Assembly: GCA_029856145.1 (NCBI GenBank)
Contig: JAHQWK010000008.1
Span: 96,001-160,000, forward strand
Length of the DNA: 64,000 bases
Direction: 5' to 3'
Origin: Promethearchaeia archaeon
Lineage (GTDB): Archaea > Asgardarchaeota > Lokiarchaeia > Sigyniarchaeales > SOKP01
In this document: positions 12,916-21,397 of the stretch, piece after piece
Layout: every line of letters begins with the position of its first letter
Position numbering within the stretch: the first letter of the stretch is position 1
The notes under the pieces: model-generated
Seen by the model: only the letters and a program-made list of their open reading frames with translations
Told to the model about the DNA's origin: nothing
The model's database searches: none
Position numbers and translations under genes: made by a program

Positions 12916-13215
12916 ATGACTGACTCAAAAAAAGATTATCAAAAAATATTAGGTTCAGTTCAAAAACCCGTAATTGGCGAAGCAGGTAAAACTGGAACTT
13001 GGAGTCCAAAAAAGCCAATTATTGATTTAGATAAATGTATTCCAGTTAAATCTGGAAAACCTAGTTGTTTTAATTGCTGGCTTTATTGTCCCGAGGCTGT
13101 AGTGACGAGAACAATTCCTCCTAAGATCGATTTAGTATATTGTAAAGGATGTGGAATTTGTATGGAAGAATGCCCAGTCAAAGCTATTACAATGGAGGAG
13201 GTGAAATCTGAGTGA
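12916..13215 (+). CDS. porD: 2-oxoacid:ferredoxin oxidoreductase delta subunit (2x[4Fe-4S])
   Basis: KTGTW..KKP, C...CFNCWLYCP and YCKGCGICMEECP. Confidence 0.93.
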   Translation: MTDSKKDYQKILGSVQKPVIGEAGKTGTWSPKKPIIDLDKCIPVKSGKPSCFNCWLYCPEAVVTRTIPPKIDLVYCKGCGICMEECPVKAITMEEVKSE

Positions 13216-14504
13216 CTGTAATTGAATCAAAGAAAACTAAAATTGATGAAAACATAATGATTTTAACTGGAAATCATGCAGCCGCACATGCTTTTCGGCA
13301 AGTGAAAGTAGGCGTTGTGTCAGCGTATCCAATTACACCACAAAGTCCTGTGGTTGAAAAAATTGCTGAATTTATTTCAGAAGGAAAATTAAAAGCCAGA
13401 TTCGTTAAAGTTGAATCTGAACATTCGGCATTAGCCGTGTGTTGTGCCGCGTCTGCAACCGGATCGAGGGTTGGCACTGCAACATCTGCTCACGGTTTAG
13501 AATATATGTATGAAATGTTACCATGGGCAGCAGGAAATAGGTTACCTATTATAATTAATCTCGCAACAAGATCGCTTGGGGCTCCTTGGTCAGTTTGGAC
13601 GGATCACTCCGATTTCATTACAATAAGAGATGTTGGCTGGATTCAGTTTATGTGTGAAAATAACCAGGAAATTTATGATACTAATCTTCAAGCATTTAAG
13701 ATTGCAGAAGATCCGCGTGTTTTTCTACCTGCAATAGTTGCTTATGATGGATATATACTAAGTCATACAATGATGCCAGTCAAATTAGAAAATCAAGAAA
13801 GAATTGACCAATTTTTACCATCTCTTAAGCACCATATTAATTTATCTGACATTTCACAAGTAAAAGGTATCGATCCAGTAACTACACCTCACATTGTTAA
13901 GCGAGCAGAAGGAACTGCTCCCGGTTATTATGAATATAGATATTCCCTTCAAAGATCTTTAGAAAATTCAATTGATATAGTTAAAGAGGTTCATGATGAG
14001 TTTGCCACCAAATTTGGGAGATCTTATGGGAACGGTATATATAAAAAAGTTCAAACTGAGGATGCTGATACAATTATCTATGCTATGGGATCAGTTGCCT
14101 CACAAGCTAGAGTTGCAATTAAAAAGCTAAGAGCAGAAGGTTTAAAGATTGGAATATTAAGCCTTAAACTATTTAGACCTTATCCATACGAAGAAATGAA
14201 GGAATTTTTCAAAGATAAAAAAAATATTATAGTTTTTGACAGAGATATTGGATATGGATACGAAGGTGTTCTATCTTATGAATTAAAAGCTGCGCTTTAT
14301 GGATTAAAAAATAGACCAAACCTCAAGGGCTTTATTGTTGGGTTAGGTGGTAGAGATGTAAAAACAGAACATATCATTACCGGTGTTCATAAAGCTTTAG
14401 ATGAATTTAAAAAAGGAATATCTACTAATAAAACCGATTTTTTAGGTTTAAGATTAGAGGAATTGAAAGATTATGATGAATCAACATACTTTAAAAGTGA
14501 GTGA
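13212..14504 (+). CDS. porA: 2-oxoacid:ferredoxin oxidoreductase alpha subunit
   Basis: AYPITPQ, VESEHSA, TATSAHGL, GLGGRD; start/stop overlap with porD. Confidence 0.95.
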   Translation: MTVIESKKTKIDENIMILTGNHAAAHAFRQVKVGVVSAYPITPQSPVVEKIAEFISEGKLKARFVKVESEHSALAVCCAASATGSRVGTATSAHGLEYMYEMLPWAAGNRLPIIINLATRSLGAPWSVWTDHSDFITIRDVGWIQFMCENNQEIYDTNLQAFKIAEDPRVFLPAIVAYDGYILSHTMMPVKLENQERIDQFLPSLKHHINLSDISQVKGIDPVTTPHIVKRAEGTAPGYYEYRYSLQRSLENSIDIVKEVHDEFATKFGRSYGNGIYKKVQTEDADTIIYAMGSVASQARVAIKKLRAEGLKIGILSLKLFRPYPYEEMKEFFKDKKNIIVFDRDIGYGYEGVLSYELKAALYGLKNRPNLKGFIVGLGGRDVKTEHIITGVHKALDEFKKGISTNKTDFLGLRLEELKDYDESTYFKSE

Positions 14505-15409
14505 AAAAAATGGTAAATGTGATGGATCTTCCTGAAGAGGAATTTATTTATCCAGGCACTCGTGCTTGTGCGGGATGTGGAATGGCGTTGATCTATAGAA
14601 TTGCTCTTAAAGCTTTGGGGGCTAAAACAATAGCAACGGTACCAGCATCATGTTTAACAGTACTACATGGAATGCAAGGATTCTGCTCAACAAAAATATC
14701 TGTTTATCATACACCTTTCGCAACAACTGGAGCTTCTGCATCTGGAATCTTAGCTTCATTAGAGGATAAAGGTTTAGCAGATGAAATTACTGTTCTTGCT
14801 TTTGCAGGAGATGGTGGAACAACAGATATAGGGATACAAGCTCTAAGTGGTGCCGTAGAAAGAGGAACTAACTTTATCTATGCATGTTATGATAATGAAG
14901 CATATATGAATACAGGAGTTCAGCGAAGTGGTTCAACCCCACTAGGCGTTCGAACGACTACTACTCCAGAGGGAAAGAAAGTTAATAAGAAAAATATGCC
15001 TAAGATATTAGAAGCACATGATATTCCATATGTCACTACTGCTAATGCTGCTTACCCTCTTGACTTATTTGAAAAATTCAAAAGAGCGAAAACTATAATC
15101 GGACCAAAATATTTCCATATATTATCACCTTGTCCTCCGGGATGGGGATATGAACCAAAAGATACAATTTTAATTGGTAGATTAGCAAACGAAACAGGAT
15201 TCTGGCCTCTTTATGAGGTTATTGACGGTAAATTTGAAGTATCAAGACCAAGTAAAAGATATTTAGACTCATCTAAAAGAAAACCAATTACAGAGTATCT
15301 GAAAATTCAAAAAAGATTTAAATCCATTGATAATGCAACAACAAAGATTTATGAAGAGTATATTGCCAATATGTGGAAAGAAATAAAAACTAGACTCGAA
15401 AATCAGTAA
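14501..15409 (+). CDS. porB: 2-oxoacid:ferredoxin oxidoreductase beta subunit (TPP-binding)
   Basis: ACAGCG, GDGG...DNEAYMNTG TPP motif, SPCPPGW. Confidence 0.95.
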   Translation: MKKMVNVMDLPEEEFIYPGTRACAGCGMALIYRIALKALGAKTIATVPASCLTVLHGMQGFCSTKISVYHTPFATTGASASGILASLEDKGLADEITVLAFAGDGGTTDIGIQALSGAVERGTNFIYACYDNEAYMNTGVQRSGSTPLGVRTTTTPEGKKVNKKNMPKILEAHDIPYVTTANAAYPLDLFEKFKRAKTIIGPKYFHILSPCPPGWGYEPKDTILIGRLANETGFWPLYEVIDGKFEVSRPSKRYLDSSKRKPITEYLKIQKRFKSIDNATTKIYEEYIANMWKEIKTRLENQ

Positions 15410-15523
15410 AGATTTAAATATTAAAGTATTGGTTGAAAATTGTTTATTTTTTTAGTTTTTATTAGTTTATCCTAAAGTTATAGTAAAAAATAAAAGCTAA
15501 ATTTAGTTAAGTTAAGTAGATAT

Positions 15524-16309
15524 TTGATGCTAAGAACATTCATATTTGATGAGTCTAAATCTCATTGGATCGACGAAGAACATCGTTTACTATCCCAAGA
15601 CATCTGTGCAATTTTAGATGAGGAAAATGATGTTATATATCTTTGGAATGGGCCAAAAAGCAAAAAAGCAAAATTTAGGAAAGGATTTAAACAATTAAAT
15701 CAATTAGTCTCCAGCTTTCCAGATTTAAATATCCAGTTTGTTATGACAAAGAAGAATTTTCCAATTCAGATTCAAAACAAAATTGATTCATTATTAGAAT
15801 CCATGAAATTAGGCAAGGGGAAAGTTTTAAAATTTAGTAGATTTACAACTATACGGATTTTCAGCATTTCCATAATGATTTCAGTGATTTTACCAATTTT
15901 TTCGTTTTTAAATTTAAGCACATCATTGTTTTGGCCAATGTTTAATGGGAATTATCAAGTGAATGACATAAACTATGCTGCTTGGATTAATAATTCAAAA
16001 ATATTCACTTTAATTACGCTAATATTTTTCTTTATCAATATTTTGATTGGGATAATTGAACATGAAAACCAAGTTATAATATTTTCAACAAACAGTATGA
16101 TTATTTCAATAGGATTGATTATGTACTTAAACCAAGGGATTTTTTTATTTTTATTTCAAGAAGGCTCAACACCAACTACTTATCTCATATTATCGAAAGA
16201 TATTCTCATCTTTTTGCTGTTGAATTCAATGGCTTTACTGATTTTTGAAATACCAAATATATATAAATTAATATCTTTTTTCAAAACATATCGAAAATTC
16301 ATTTTTTAG
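15524..16309 (+). CDS. Membrane protein with N-terminal gelsolin-like domain and about 4 TM helices
   Basis: LLSQDICAILDEENDVIYLWNGPKS fits the gelsolin core L.S.D..ILD....IY.W.G..S; residues ~110-250 hold four hydrophobic segments; start may be the ATG at 15527. Confidence 0.65.
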   Translation: MMLRTFIFDESKSHWIDEEHRLLSQDICAILDEENDVIYLWNGPKSKKAKFRKGFKQLNQLVSSFPDLNIQFVMTKKNFPIQIQNKIDSLLESMKLGKGKVLKFSRFTTIRIFSISIMISVILPIFSFLNLSTSLFWPMFNGNYQVNDINYAAWINNSKIFTLITLIFFFINILIGIIEHENQVIIFSTNSMIISIGLIMYLNQGIFLFLFQEGSTPTTYLILSKDILIFLLLNSMALLIFEIPNIYKLISFFKTYRKFIF

Positions 16310-16320
16310 CTGAAAAAAGT

Positions 16321-17196
16321 GTGCAAGTAGCAAACCTTCTTACTAAACTTGAAAAGGAAGATCTTAGAATACTTATGGCAATTGAAATTGGGATGAAAAG
16401 ATCAGAGTTTGTTACTATAAATAATATTAAATTCTATTCACGTTACAAGATGGAAGAGACTCTTTTCCGTCTAAAAAAAGTTCATAAACTTGATTTAATT
16501 ATTAGAGACGCTTCCAAACATGAAATTGCCTACACACTCAATTCTAAAGCATATGATTTACTTGCGTTGCATACTTTAGTCCAACAAAATATAATCAGTC
16601 AATTGGGACCTCCCATAGGTAAAGGTAAAGAATCAGATGTATATAGTTGCATGGATGATGATAAAAATATTTATGCGGCTAAATTTTATCGAATGGGGAG
16701 GACAAGCTTTAAAAGTATCAAACAATTAAGAGATATTATTGGAAATAGAGGACATCTCTCTTGGCTTTATGTAAATAGACTTGCTGCCAAAAAAGAATAT
16801 GAAGCTCTTGAAGAAATATATAAACTCAAACTAAATACTCCAAAGCCAATAGGATATAACAGACATATAATTATAATGTCATATTTGAGAGGAAAAGAAT
16901 TAGTTTACTATAAAAGTATTAAAAAACCTTTAAAAATTTTCAATAGAATTATAAAACAATATAAAGTAATATATAAAAAAGTAAACATGATACATGGGGA
17001 TTTAGGGGAATTTAACATTGTTTTGGATGAAAAAGGAAACATTTTAATAATTGATTGGCTACAGTGGGTTCCAACTGATCATCCCAATGCTAATTCACTT
17101 TTAGAAAGAGATGTTGAGAATATATGTAATTATTTCCGAAAAAAGTATAAAATTGAAAGTAATGTAGAAGAGATTCTTCAATCATTTCACAAATAG
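16321..17196 (+). CDS. rio2: RIO2-type atypical protein kinase
   Basis: N-terminal wHTH (DLRILMAIEIGM, YDLLAL), IGKGKESDVY, KFYRMGRTSF, IHGDLGEFNI, IDWLQ, HPNA. Confidence 0.95.
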   Translation: MQVANLLTKLEKEDLRILMAIEIGMKRSEFVTINNIKFYSRYKMEETLFRLKKVHKLDLIIRDASKHEIAYTLNSKAYDLLALHTLVQQNIISQLGPPIGKGKESDVYSCMDDDKNIYAAKFYRMGRTSFKSIKQLRDIIGNRGHLSWLYVNRLAAKKEYEALEEIYKLKLNTPKPIGYNRHIIIMSYLRGKELVYYKSIKKPLKIFNRIIKQYKVIYKKVNMIHGDLGEFNIVLDEKGNILIIDWLQWVPTDHPNANSLLERDVENICNYFRKKYKIESNVEEILQSFHK

Positions 17197-17210: not shown

Positions 17211-17825
17211 TTATTCTTTCAATATTATCCCTTGAATCACAATATCCTCTAAATTTTCGTTGTTTATTATAAATAAATCTTTTATCTTAGTTTTTAATAT
17301 TTTTAACAATGATTCTAATTCTAATTTTTTCTTTAATATTGAAAATTTAAAATCAGCATTATTTTTACTAACCCTAAATGATTCATTAATTCCATCCTTA
17401 GTATGAGGTAAATTTTGGAAGGAAGTTAGTGCAAAAATTGAAAAGAATATATTCTCTCTAAAAGGTAAACAATCAATATCGGACAAAATTAAATTTGGAG
17501 TATAGTTACTGTAATTAAAATTAATAATTTTTGATTTGAATTCTAATAGCATTTTCCAAGAAATATCTACTCCTACATAATTTAATTTTATTGCTTCCTT
17601 ATATAATAAAGACTTTTTGATATATTCAAAAAATAATCCTGTACCACAGCCCAAGTCTAAAATAATTCTTCCATCTGCTCTGTAATTATTTAAAACAATT
17701 TCATATTTCTCTTCTTGTATCACTCGATATCTCTTATCGTAAAACTGAGAAGATGAATTGTATTTTTCGATTATCTTTTTCTTCTTATTGTGAATTCTAG
17801 AGTGCTCTTCCAAGATGATAACCAA
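17211..17825 (-). CDS. Class I SAM-dependent methyltransferase
   Basis: ILDLGCGTG, VGVDISWKML, LPFR. Confidence 0.85.
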   Translation of the reverse strand: MVIILEEHSRIHNKKKKIIEKYNSSSQFYDKRYRVIQEEKYEIVLNNYRADGRIILDLGCGTGLFFEYIKKSLLYKEAIKLNYVGVDISWKMLLEFKSKIINFNYSNYTPNLILSDIDCLPFRENIFFSIFALTSFQNLPHTKDGINESFRVSKNNADFKFSILKKKLELESLLKILKTKIKDLFIINNENLEDIVIQGIILKE

Positions 17826-17936
17826 ACGAATTTTATCTTGTTTTTTTAATGCCGTAAGGTTTTAATTCAAAAAATTCTATCTTTAAATTATCTTTTCAAT
17901 AAATATAATAATAATTTTTTGATATAAAAATTAAAA

Positions 17937-18200
17937 ATGTCAAGTAAAAATAATAATGAACAGAGATCGAAAAACCCTTTACAAATTTTGCAAAATAGCC
18001 AAGGTTCAACAATTTTGCTCAGATTAAAAGATGGAACTGAATATAAAGGGTTATTAAAGGAAATAGATGCTTACATGAACATGATTCTAGAGGATGCTAC
18101 GGAAATGATTGATAATTTACCCGTGGCTAAATACAACGAGATATTCATTCGGGGCAATAATCTTCTATTCATAAAACCGGATGCTTCTCAGCTTACATAG
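17937..18200 (+). CDS. Sm/LSm-family RNA-binding protein (SmAP)
   Basis: Sm1 LKDGTEYKGLLKEIDAYMNMILEDA, Sm2 IFIRGNN. Confidence 0.95.
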   Translation: MSSKNNNEQRSKNPLQILQNSQGSTILLRLKDGTEYKGLLKEIDAYMNMILEDATEMIDNLPVAKYNEIFIRGNNLLFIKPDASQLT

Positions 18201-18284
18201 GTATTATAATCACTTTTCATTAGTTTACCCTTACATTGAACCTTAGATTTCATAAAAAATCGAAATCATTATCTAGAATTAGTT

Positions 18285-19184
18285 TTATAACTCTAAGAGT
18301 TTTGGTATTATCTCATTATTTCTAATAATTGCATAAGACGCAGGATTTGGAGTATAATCTCCTCCATAATTCGCTGATGAGAATATTGATAATAATTTAT
18401 TATTAAAGAACCATCGATATCCCTCAGGAAAACATTCATGCGCTCTTATAAGATAAATTAGATTGTTATACTTCATAAAAACATCGAAAACATCGTTTCC
18501 AAAAAACTTAATGCCTACCCCTCTAAAACTATCGGAAAAACCTTGTAATCCCGACTTAGGGTCATTCCACATAATTTGATATATACTTTGAGCATTTGAG
18601 GTAAATACCACATTAAAATCCTTACATTTTTGACCTTGTAATTTCTTTAAAATTTCATTATCTTGTGGAATTCCTCCATGTAAGCATAAAATTATTTCAT
18701 TAATTAATGCACATATCGGGAGTGCGTTATAAACTTTTATTATTTCATTGAACTTACTTTGATCTTTGAATCTTAAAAGAAAATCTTGAAAAAAACCATA
18801 ATATTGATTCATTTCAAGAGTTTCATGATTTCCTCTTAATACGTAATACTTTAAAGGGAAAAGAATCTTTAAAGCAAAAATTATAAGTAGACATTCTAAT
18901 TGCTTAGATCCACGATCAACAATATCTCCTAAAAAAATTACTAACTTTGGGTTATCAATATTTATGATTTTGATTAATTCTATCAAGGTTTTTAAGTTTC
19001 CATGAATATCTCCTATTACATAAACTAATTCTGTTTTTTTATTAACTTTAAACTCTAAAAGTAGATTTTCTTCCTCAAATTTTTTTTTAACTGTCTTTAT
19101 TATTCTTGAAATATTATCAAACTTTAATTTAGAGATTTTTTGAGGATTTTTTATTAGATCAAGTAAAAATGAATTTTCAATCAA
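18285..19184 (-). CDS. Ser/Thr protein phosphatase, PPP family
   Basis: GDIHG, GDIVDRG, LRGNHE, HGG, WNDP, RAHE, FSSANY. Confidence 0.95.
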   Translation of the reverse strand: MIENSFLLDLIKNPQKISKLKFDNISRIIKTVKKKFEEENLLLEFKVNKKTELVYVIGDIHGNLKTLIELIKIINIDNPKLVIFLGDIVDRGSKQLECLLIIFALKILFPLKYYVLRGNHETLEMNQYYGFFQDFLLRFKDQSKFNEIIKVYNALPICALINEIILCLHGGIPQDNEILKKLQGQKCKDFNVVFTSNAQSIYQIMWNDPKSGLQGFSDSFRGVGIKFFGNDVFDVFMKYNNLIYLIRAHECFPEGYRWFFNNKLLSIFSSANYGGDYTPNPASYAIIRNNEIIPKLLEL

Positions 19185-19300: not shown

Positions 19301-21397
19301 ATGGATGAAATACTAGCTCAAAAGTTATTAAATTTTATTGGGAAGCAAATTGAGAGTTTTGAAAATGAAAAACTCCTTGGAAAAAATAAAAATCATAATC
19401 TTGGAATAGTTTATACCCCAAACCAAGTTGTAGATTATATAGTATCTAATATATTCAGAATTTATTTTCAAGAGTTTTTTAATTCTTTAGATGATTATCA
19501 AGTTAATTTCAATTTGAAAGAAACATTGAAAAAATTAATCAGAAATCAGGAAGTTAAAGAAAAATTAAGTAAAATCATTAAAAGTATAAGGGTTTTAGAT
19601 CCTTCATGTGGTTCTGGGAGATTTTTAATATCTGTTGCAGAAAAATTATATAAAATTTATCAAATAGTAGAACCTGAATTATCTAATTTCGATATTAAAA
19701 AAGTAATAATTCAGAAGAATCTTTATGGAATTGAAATTGAAAACTCTGCTATTTTTATTTCAAAGCTGAGATTAATTAAATGGCTTTTATCTACTAATGT
19801 AAACAACTTATTATTTCATAATATTAACTTTAAGGGTTTAAAACTCACAGATCTTGACCAAATCATCGAAAAACTAGATTTAAAATTTAACTTTTTCAAC
19901 TTAGACTTTCTTTTAGAATTTGACTCTGATAAATTCGATATTATAATTGGAAATCCTCCTTATGTAGAAAATAAAAAGATAAAGGATATAGAATTTAAAA
20001 AAAGATTGACTAAGAGATATAAAACAGCTTATCGTTTATTTGATCTTTCAATACTTTTTATTGAGAGATCTTTAGAATTATTAGAAAATAATGGATATCT
20101 CTCATTTATTTTACCTAATAAATTCTTATCGGCAGATTATGGTATCAAAGTCAGACTATTATTATTAAATGAATCCGAGATTAAAGAAATCATAAATATA
20201 TCATCTTTACCTATATTTCAAAACGCAGCTACATACCCTATTATTTTATCTCTGAAGAAAGCTAAACAAAGCAAGGAAAAAGAGGTAATTATTAAAATTT
20301 TTAATAATTTAAACGAGTTAACTGAAAATAATAGAATTAAGACTATAAAATTCCATCAAAATTTAATTAATAAATTTCCTTCAAAAGTAATTCCGATCTC
20401 AGGAAATATAGAATTAATCACATATTTATTTAGAAACTTTAAAACCTTTGCTGAAACCTTTCAAGATTTAAAAATTATATATCGACCTTATGGTTTTTTA
20501 AATTATAGCAAACATTTTGATAATATCAGCGATGAACCCCAGTCTGATAATGATTTGGTATTAATTGGAACAGGTAATATTGAAAAATATTTTATTAAAT
20601 TTAATAAAAGAATAAAAATTGCTGGTAAAGATATTAAAATTTCATATTTTAATTATCATACTATTTTTGAACATATTTGGAGCGATCTCAATAGCGAAAA
20701 ACTAATTTTCAGGGAAATCGCAAAAGACTTAACTTGTTGTTATGATCCCGGGGTATTTACAAATATAACAGGTCTTTATTTTATAAAAATTGCTTCATTC
20801 AAAACTGATCAATTATTCAGTCTTTTAACAATTTTAAATTCGAACTTATTGGATTTGGTGTTTAAAACATTATTTGGTACATTACATATGGCTGGAGGTT
20901 ATTTGCGATTTAATGGTAGTTTCATTAAAAGATTACCATTACCAAGAAAATTTCCTTTGTTTCTATCACAATTGGGAAAAATTCTTCACCTCCTTTCACA
21001 ATTAAAATATGATCTTGACTCAAAAGATCCTGAAATTATAAGAAATCCTGAAATCGAAAGATTCAATAACAAATACTATAATGAAATACAGACTTATCTT
21101 AAATTTTTTAAAAGATTGAGCAATTCTTTGGTGAACTTATTATTTTTAGATGATTTATATTTAGAGTCTAATTTAGATTATTATTTATTAAGAGATTTAT
21201 TCGATATAAAAATAGAACCACAAAAAGTTCCACACAAATTTTTAATTCCTCGATTCGATATTAATAATTATAAAATCTTTTCATTAAATGAATTAGATTC
21301 TATTTTAACTAAAATAAAAAAACTATATAGCCGATTACATAATAATGCAGGTTTATTAAATCAAATAGACGACCTAATGAAAAATAATTTCAGCTAA
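19301..21397 (+). CDS. Amino (probably N6-adenine) DNA methyltransferase, gamma class (Eco57I/TaqI-like) with C-terminal target-recognition region
   Basis: GIVYTP, VLDPSCGSGRFL (motif I), FDIIIGNPPYV (motif IV), GYLSFILPNKFL. Confidence 0.88.
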   Translation: MDEILAQKLLNFIGKQIESFENEKLLGKNKNHNLGIVYTPNQVVDYIVSNIFRIYFQEFFNSLDDYQVNFNLKETLKKLIRNQEVKEKLSKIIKSIRVLDPSCGSGRFLISVAEKLYKIYQIVEPELSNFDIKKVIIQKNLYGIEIENSAIFISKLRLIKWLLSTNVNNLLFHNINFKGLKLTDLDQIIEKLDLKFNFFNLDFLLEFDSDKFDIIIGNPPYVENKKIKDIEFKKRLTKRYKTAYRLFDLSILFIERSLELLENNGYLSFILPNKFLSADYGIKVRLLLLNESEIKEIINISSLPIFQNAATYPIILSLKKAKQSKEKEVIIKIFNNLNELTENNRIKTIKFHQNLINKFPSKVIPISGNIELITYLFRNFKTFAETFQDLKIIYRPYGFLNYSKHFDNISDEPQSDNDLVLIGTGNIEKYFIKFNKRIKIAGKDIKISYFNYHTIFEHIWSDLNSEKLIFREIAKDLTCCYDPGVFTNITGLYFIKIASFKTDQLFSLLTILNSNLLDLVFKTLFGTLHMAGGYLRFNGSFIKRLPLPRKFPLFLSQLGKILHLLSQLKYDLDSKDPEIIRNPEIERFNNKYYNEIQTYLKFFKRLSNSLVNLLFLDDLYLESNLDYYLLRDLFDIKIEPQKVPHKFLIPRFDINNYKIFSLNELDSILTKIKKLYSRLHNNAGLLNQIDDLMKNNFS

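Follow-up and report, generated by a model that had tools for sequence, protein, structure and literature searches.

A gelsolin-homology domain joined to a four-helix membrane bundle in Lokiarchaeia: a candidate actin-membrane tether

Using a combination of methods (sequence profiles, profile-profile comparison, structure prediction, phylogeny and comparison of gene neighbourhoods), we analysed a gene of the window, i.e. the whole stretch of 64,000 nucleotides studied here, and found that it encodes a protein of 260 residues, designated TM-gel, whose gelsolin-homology (GH) domain is very probably anchored in the membrane by a four-helix bundle. We propose, with a probability of about 0.5, that TM-gel is a candidate actin-membrane tether specified by an accessory gene, with a GH domain that sequence and structural models place in the cytoplasm.

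The TM-gel gene and its gelsolin-homology domain

The gene corresponds to an open reading frame listed at 15524..16309 on the plus strand, which opens with a TTG at 15524 directly followed by an ATG at 15527. Because the homologues are almost all 260 amino acids long and begin with MLRT, we take the ATG at 15527 as the start codon; the TM-gel coding sequence, as defined by the reading frame, its translation and the homologue lengths, thus spans 15527..16309 (260 codons from 15527 to 16306, and a stop codon ending at 16309). A word-indexed search returned 207 clusters of homologues at 90% identity, all from Asgard metagenome-assembled genomes (MAGs), all named "hypothetical" and devoid of a Pfam domain, nearly all of which are 260 amino acids long and cover 100% of the query. 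An exhaustive HMMER scan of 1.84 billion representatives yielded 72 clusters at 50% identity. Even with the distant homologues (20-30% identity, 270-320 amino acids), the alignment extends from near residue 4 to near residue 250, which shows that both halves of the protein are inherited together. TM-gel is a genuine conserved gene with a two-part layout.

The motif in which the initial annotation had recognised a gelsolin core occurs at residues 21-47 (...LLSQDICAILDEENDVIYLWNGPKSKK) and, as that annotation described, is followed by a basic stretch (7 K/R in residues 94-110) and by four hydrophobic segments, which AF2 models as four long helices. The GH domain itself covers residues 1-95 (15527..15811, plus strand), as delimited with AF2, Foldseek, VIA, profiles and hhalign. 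Since it is too divergent for the curated PF00626 model, its membership rests on profile and fold evidence. Neither the full protein nor its residues 1-108 gave a Pfam match even at E 10; the single protein falls below the Pfam gathering score for PF00626, and a phmmer search of the PDB with the single sequence returned only a weak match to ProGel (E 0.52). A profile built from 27 TM-gel sequences retrieved Thor ProGel from the PDB at 0.0017, with 25 of its 27 matches belonging to the gelsolin family. With 100 sequences, the profile matched villin (1.3e-10), gelsolin (4.3e-10), CapG (1.9e-6) and ProGel (3.7e-6), and the top 30 matches were all members of the gelsolin superfamily. When 42 diverse TM-gel members were scanned singly against Pfam, PF00626 appeared below threshold in 18 of them (best value 1.3e-4), and no other family was matched by more than two members. 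The first 95 columns of the TM-gel alignment, compared by hhalign with the first domain (D1) of 21 Pfam-positive Loki 2DGel proteins from the same order as the window, gave a probability of 95.8% and an E-value of 6.9e-9 over 70 columns. The suggested check against PF00626 gave nothing with the single protein; the family profile and hhalign showed significant similarity to known gelsolin repeats. The family profile also retrieves a Pfam-positive gelsolin from the genome of the window, as well as ProGel-type single-domain gelsolins of 83-138 amino acids from other classes of the phylum, the latter matches spanning only profile positions 25-78.

It has been shown that a D...W-x-G signature separates gelsolin from cofilin, which has WP (PMC7444086). 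This signature is present in TM-gel, with D25 and G42 invariant among 100 sequences, in which W40, D31 and Y38 are conserved at 88%, 86% and 93%, respectively. Sec23/24 and ADF-H/cofilin were absent from the profile matches at E<=1, a result compatible with a distant relationship, and from the listed Foldseek and VIA matches. That the gene might be a chance reading frame or an annotation artefact in A+T-rich DNA, bearing a coincidental gelsolin motif, could be argued from the shortness of the motif first noticed and from the lack of a Pfam match to the single sequence. This explanation is refuted by the homologue clusters, the hhalign result and the profile matches: hundreds of full-length homologues conserve the length and both domains, the gene occupies a conserved position, the profile E-values reach 1e-10 and the fold is predicted with confidence, which leaves it with a negligible probability.

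The AF2 model of TM-gel reached a pLDDT of 78 with 27 sequences and of 88 with 100 sequences, the blocks of ten residues of the N-domain ranging from 69 to 87 in the latter. Both models display the order b-b-b-b-helix-b-helix (strands 2-8, 13-16, 26-31 and 36-41, long helix 47-62, strand 70-73 and helix 80-95), i.e. a mixed beta sheet lying between a long and a shorter helix, as in the gelsolin fold. The AlphaFold and Foldseek test proposed for this domain gave ProGel (7c2f) as the best match of both models (E of about 9e-5, TM 0.66-0.70; for the pLDDT-88 model, 7c2f_B with E 8.7e-5 and TM 0.70), and every listed match of either model was a gelsolin domain. VIA, which is independent of Foldseek, aligned the GH domain with ProGel over 84 of 88 residues, with a Z of 9.9 and an rmsd of 2.5 A. 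Sequence profile, profile-profile comparison and predicted fold thus agree with the gelsolin-type N-domain first proposed, and residues 1-95 are, on this combined sequence and model evidence, a gelsolin-homology domain.

The type-2 Ca2+ site of gelsolin domains comprises an Asp located before strand 3, a Glu of the long helix lying seven residues past the glycine of W-x-G, and a further acidic position close to the E-G-x-E-P of the C-terminus. In TM-gel, the hhalign alignment with 2DGel D1 indicates that the Asp is kept (D25), that the position of the helix Glu is occupied by a lysine (K49) and that the C-terminal acidic stretch reads K-K-N-F-P. The type-2 site thus appears to be degraded (Glu to Lys), as in ProGel, and a Ca2+ control of TM-gel is probably not to be expected. 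ProGel has been described as devoid of Ca2+ sites (PMC7444086).

A maximum-likelihood tree was computed from 53 GH domains; its 96 columns are too few to resolve the inner forks. In this tree, the TM-gel GH domains and one soluble protein of 92 amino acids stand behind a long branch (support 100/99), on the far side of which lie the Thor-type ProGel, the D1 and D2 domains of 2DGel and the 163- and 197-residue gelsolins of the window's own genome. Such a topology would be compatible with a single fusion event. The 92-residue protein (L046:6391-6666, minus strand) comes from a closed 6.04-Mb genome (G138) of the same order. It is 30% identical to the TM-gel GH domain over 90 residues, carries the family-specific W-I-x-x-E and F-P motifs, matches PF00626 at E 0.0074, has no membrane part and groups with the TM-gel GH domains. 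It may be of the soluble type from which TM-gel arose, or else a TM-gel that later lost its bundle.

The membrane bundle and its orientation

The GH domain is followed by a flexible basic linker (residues 96-105, 15812..15841, plus strand), identified by hydropathy, charge counts and AF2. Because the pLDDT falls below 50 at residues 94-99, we regard the GH domain as flexibly tethered. Hydropathy (Kyte-Doolittle >=1.6 over 19 amino acids) delineates four segments (106-136, 156-180, 183-210 and 219-246), and AF2 predicts four helices (106-135, 147-178, 181-201 and 223-259) with pLDDT values of 93-97 in blocks of ten residues. On the plus strand, these data and sequence conservation define transmembrane helix 1 (residues 106-135, 15842..15931), outer loop 1 (136-146, 15932..15964) with its short beta strand 142-146, helix 2 (147-178, 15965..16060), helix 3 (181-201, 16067..16129; AF2 and conservation), outer loop 3 (202-222, 16130..16192) with a strand at 218-222, and helix 4 along with a short basic cytoplasmic end (223-260, 16193..16306). 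The strands of loops 1 and 3 are modelled side by side, as a pair, with high confidence.

Residues 106-259 are modelled as a generic four-helix membrane bundle. Searching for a known family of the membrane part with VIA-align (48,161 chains) returned only designed or generic four-helix bundles with Z values of 10-14, no higher than the background expected of any helical bundle, and the ESM Atlas gave, for residues 100-260, a single Promethearchaeota cluster without a name at 0.85, probably that of TM-gel itself. Within the membrane part, conservation is highest in outer loop 3 (L207, F208, F210 and I221), W136 occurs in 86% of the 100 diverse members, G196 and Y200 in more than 90%, the range for W136, G196, Y200, F208, F210 and I221 being 86-96%, and all these positions, L207 included, cluster at the outer face. 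No charged or amide residue of the bundle is invariant across the 100 members, the best being D225 (acidic in 86%) and R105, at the cytoplasmic edge. This pattern of conservation argues against an enzyme or a transporter and, in our view, suggests a specific role for the outer loops, and thereby a bundle that does not merely serve as an anchor.

Both termini are predicted to lie inside the cell, which makes the GH domain cytoplasmic. In keeping with the cytoplasmic location anticipated for the gelsolin domain, the numbers of K+R obey the positive-inside rule: the inside (linker, loop 2 and C-terminus) versus outside (loops 1 and 3) values are 8.7 versus 1.8 in close members and 14.7 versus 1.7 in diverse members. 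Furthermore, residues 1-95 contain no hydrophobic segment able to act as a signal sequence.

The orthologues of the sister family (281-286 amino acids; L036:6517-7365, L037:6427-7284 and L038:6800-7642, all on the minus strand) possess a strongly conserved cytoplasmic tail (...E-x-M-R-L-x-S-K/R-P-T-I-L-R-D-K-x-P-V-E-L-K-E-I-E), which is absent from the TM-gel of the window and might, judging from its conservation, be a short linear binding motif. A WH2-like actin motif was considered for this tail and found no support in Pfam, WH2 not being among the 25 most-matched families at E<=1; we keep it as no more than a lead.

Gene neighbourhood, distribution and loss of TM-gel

TM-gel is preceded on the plus strand by an A+T-rich intergenic region of 117 nt (15410..15526), which from its sequence presumably contains the promoter, and, directly upstream, by a three-gene set for a 2-oxoacid:ferredoxin oxidoreductase (12916-15409, plus strand) encoding the ferredoxin-type delta, POR_N/PFOR_II alpha and TPP-binding beta subunits. 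It is followed by the rio2 kinase gene (16321..17196, plus strand; PF01163 at 2.5e-49, Rio2_N at 2.5e-18), which lies 11 nt downstream of the TM-gel stop codon, exactly as first reported. The conserved housekeeping block extends beyond rio2 (17211-19184) and ends there with genes for a class I SAM methyltransferase on the minus strand, an LSM/Sm protein on the plus strand and a calcineurin-like phosphoesterase on the minus strand, and a 698-residue protein of the Eco57I/N6 DNA methylase type comes next (19301-21397, plus strand; PF07669 at 8.7e-34). No cytoskeletal gene was found among the neighbours of TM-gel, which are housekeeping genes (por, rio2).

In the f1 family, the order porD-porA-porB, TM-gel, rio2, methyltransferase, LSM and phosphatase is conserved in the five genera sampled, the por set being syntenic with TM-gel and rio2 across all five. 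In the f3 family, three genomes, including a closed one of 6.04 Mb, have TM-gel between a TFIIB (TFB) gene and an Eco57I-type methylase gene, while a fourth has it beside the methyltransferase and LSM genes. This f3 methylase is a homologue of the protein encoded at 19301-21397 in the window, and it adjoins TM-gel in a sister family, so that both genes stayed in one region despite rearrangement. The co-transcription of TM-gel with rio2, which the initial annotation had considered probable, is plausible in f1 because of the 11-nt gap and because the deletion alleles described below still have, ahead of rio2, the equivalent of the upstream intergenic region. The pairing with rio2 is, however, not conserved, in view of the location of the f3 gene between TFB and the methylase.

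Among the 400 genomes of the phylum that were scanned, full-length TM-gel occurs only in the order of the window, in 129 of 153 genomes (111 of 134 in f1, 1 of 1 in f2, 13 of 14 in f3 and 4 of 4 in f4), some of which harbour two or three paralogues. The survey across Asgard genomes that had been recommended thus shows the combination of a GH domain and four helices to be kept throughout one order, and all checked matches outside this order are soluble proteins with only the GH core. The NCBI labels of the homologous MAG proteins (Thor-, Odin-, Hod- and Hermod-) conflict with this GTDB-based distribution; given identities of 65-80%, we regard this naming as loose.

When every candidate was scored, five genomes that are 99-100% complete proved to have no full-length TM-gel, two of them in the same genus; at least some of the absences are therefore genuine. 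In three of these five, porB and rio2 are 104-240 bp apart, the distance being 104-137 bp in G183 and G168. In G204, from the same genus, a stub persists between porB and rio2 (L087:2371-2507, minus strand), which consists of the first ~21 and the last ~10 TM-gel codons, interrupted by in-frame stops; this junction of the two ends points to an internal deletion. TM-gel has been cleanly deleted several times and, because close relatives have deleted it, we consider it to be accessory rather than essential.

As a separate observation, a genome of another family of the phylum (G058) carries a partial GH domain fused in frame to an EamA protein (L077:649-1782, minus strand). What is fused is the latter half of a GH domain of the TM-gel type, with its linker, and an EamA transporter (PF00892, 2.5e-33); stops are present in the upstream frame and a second EamA gene adjoins it. 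It is probably the relic of a rearrangement or the product of a mis-binned contig.

Proposed function and comparison with known systems

The main actin of the genome (E 3.2e-132) is encoded 52 kb from TM-gel, on the same contig (C7:58279-59391), and the same genome encodes three further actin-family proteins and three soluble gelsolins. Gelsolin G1 and ProGel contact actin mainly through the long helix. In TM-gel, no element of the GH domain is less conserved than this helix (residues 47-62; mean top-residue frequency of 0.32 in the diverse alignment), whose exposed face is strongly basic (7 K/R in residues 44-55). Among the residues specific to the family, W14 and E16 are the best conserved; they belong to strand 2, where we know of no actin contact in a gelsolin domain. 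In its crystal structure with actin, ProGel adopts a cofilin-like orientation, which is compatible with binding to the sides of filaments (PMC7444086), and it binds G-actin very weakly in solution (Kd of about 337 uM). By analogy, actin binding by the GH domain of TM-gel is a prediction only, to which we give an even chance.

In the tether that we propose, a single ProGel-type GH domain would stand in the cytoplasm on a flexible basic linker of about 10 residues, itself permanently attached to a four-helix bundle, and would retain Lokiactin, either as monomers or by the sides of its filaments, on the inside of the membrane in the absence of Ca2+ control. Because ProGel binds actin weakly, many membrane-confined copies would be needed, and confinement to the plane of the membrane, possibly along with oligomerisation of the bundle, could turn the weak binding into a useful tether. 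This reading is tempered by the weak conservation of the long helix, by the lack of a cytoskeletal neighbour and by the deletion of the gene in near-complete relatives. An extended form of it, in which TM-gel would be a transmembrane actin linker with the GH domain holding Lokiactin and the outer loops contacting the envelope or the surroundings, is offered tentatively, as a possibility somewhat on the unlikely side. If true, no integral membrane protein would have been known in the gelsolin superfamily before TM-gel, which would provide Lokiarchaeia with a direct link from the outside to the actin skeleton for building or steering protrusions.

The same features of the GH domain can be read in another way, namely that it is genuine and does not bind actin, operating instead as a protein- or lipid-interaction module that recruits another cytoplasmic partner to a membrane complex, as in Sec23/24, or that docks the basic face of its helix on acidic lipids. 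Such a module would accommodate the poorly conserved and strongly basic long helix, the position of the conserved W14 and E16 away from it and the housekeeping neighbours, and there is a precedent in Sec23a, a gelsolin fold for which actin binding has not been demonstrated (PMC7444086). However, all sequence and structure matches of the domain are actin-regulating gelsolins, neither Sec23/24 nor cofilin figures among the profile matches at E<=1 or the listed Foldseek matches, and ProGel, the nearest solved relative, was crystallised bound to actin; we consider this explanation unlikely.

Alternatively, the four-helix module could be the functional core of the protein (a small channel, a sensor or an adhesion element working through the conserved outer loops), with the GH domain as a mere regulatory or scaffolding appendage. 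The conservation of outer loop 3, the best in the membrane part, the high frequency of the six outer positions and the confidently paired strands of loops 1 and 3 would fit such a core, whereas the lack of an invariant charged or amide residue inside the bundle, its resemblance to generic and designed bundles only, and the absence of a recurring Pfam family or of an Atlas cluster other than what is probably its own do not. Moreover, distant pairs of TM-gel proteins are slightly more similar in the GH domain (26.5% identity) than in the membrane part (21.7%), and we regard this second alternative as quite improbable. We retain the actin-membrane tether as our working proposal.

Cultured Asgard archaea form dynamic actin-filled protrusions (PMC9834061, PMC13716822). 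In the literature that we searched, no protein is named as fastening Lokiactin to the membrane; profilins, ProGel, 1DGelX and 2DGel, which are the actin regulators known from Asgard archaea, are handled as soluble proteins, and the co-immunoprecipitation performed with Lokiactin is, according to its authors, biased against membrane proteins. The Asgard literature (PMC7444086 and others) covers ProGel, 1DGelX, 2DGel and disordered extensions; full-text searches and the main texts of Akil 2020, Akil 2022, the L. ossiferum motility paper and preprint and two structure-based Asgard surveys yielded no transmembrane gelsolin.

The Thorarchaeota ProGel (PDB 7C2F; Akil et al. 2020, PMC7444086) resembles TM-gel in its single gelsolin/cofilin-type domain of about 90 residues, in the D...W-x-G signature and in Ca2+ sites, of which ProGel has none while TM-gel has apparently lost that of type 2. 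Unlike TM-gel, with its 260 residues and four-helix membrane bundle, ProGel is a free, soluble, stand-alone domain of about 90 amino acids; the TM-gel domains stand on a separate branch (100/99) and the sequence identity is only about 20%. The Asgard 1DGelX proteins (Akil et al. 2020; B35_GelX, L. ossiferum preprint 10.1101/2025.11.30.690169), which we compared by their description, also consist of a GH domain followed by a non-gelsolin C-terminal part. In 1DGelX, however, domain X is described as disordered or as a coiled coil, and purification and assays were carried out on a soluble protein, whereas the corresponding part of TM-gel is a hydrophobic bundle; the published counts of Loki "1DGelX" may include the TM-gel family, as may the nine GH proteins of L. 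ossiferum.

The repeats of the eukaryotic gelsolin, villin and CapG proteins (PF00626) are homologous to the TM-gel domain (profile E-values down to 1.3e-10) and share its fold, but these proteins are soluble, composed of three to six domains and regulated by Ca2+, whereas the type-2 Glu is a Lys (K49) in TM-gel. Eukaryotic gelsolins are known to associate with membranes by binding PIP2 rather than by transmembrane helices, and we know of no eukaryotic gelsolin domain fused to such helices. TM-gel is a new architecture of a known gelsolin domain family. This small, order-wide and mostly single-copy protein, which would keep a gelsolin domain bound for good to the inner side of the membrane, is a concrete and testable candidate. 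If it binds actin, then the attachment of actin to the membrane by a dedicated integral protein arose in archaea; if it does not, the gelsolin fold was recruited for another membrane-proximal job, as can be compared with Sec23/24.
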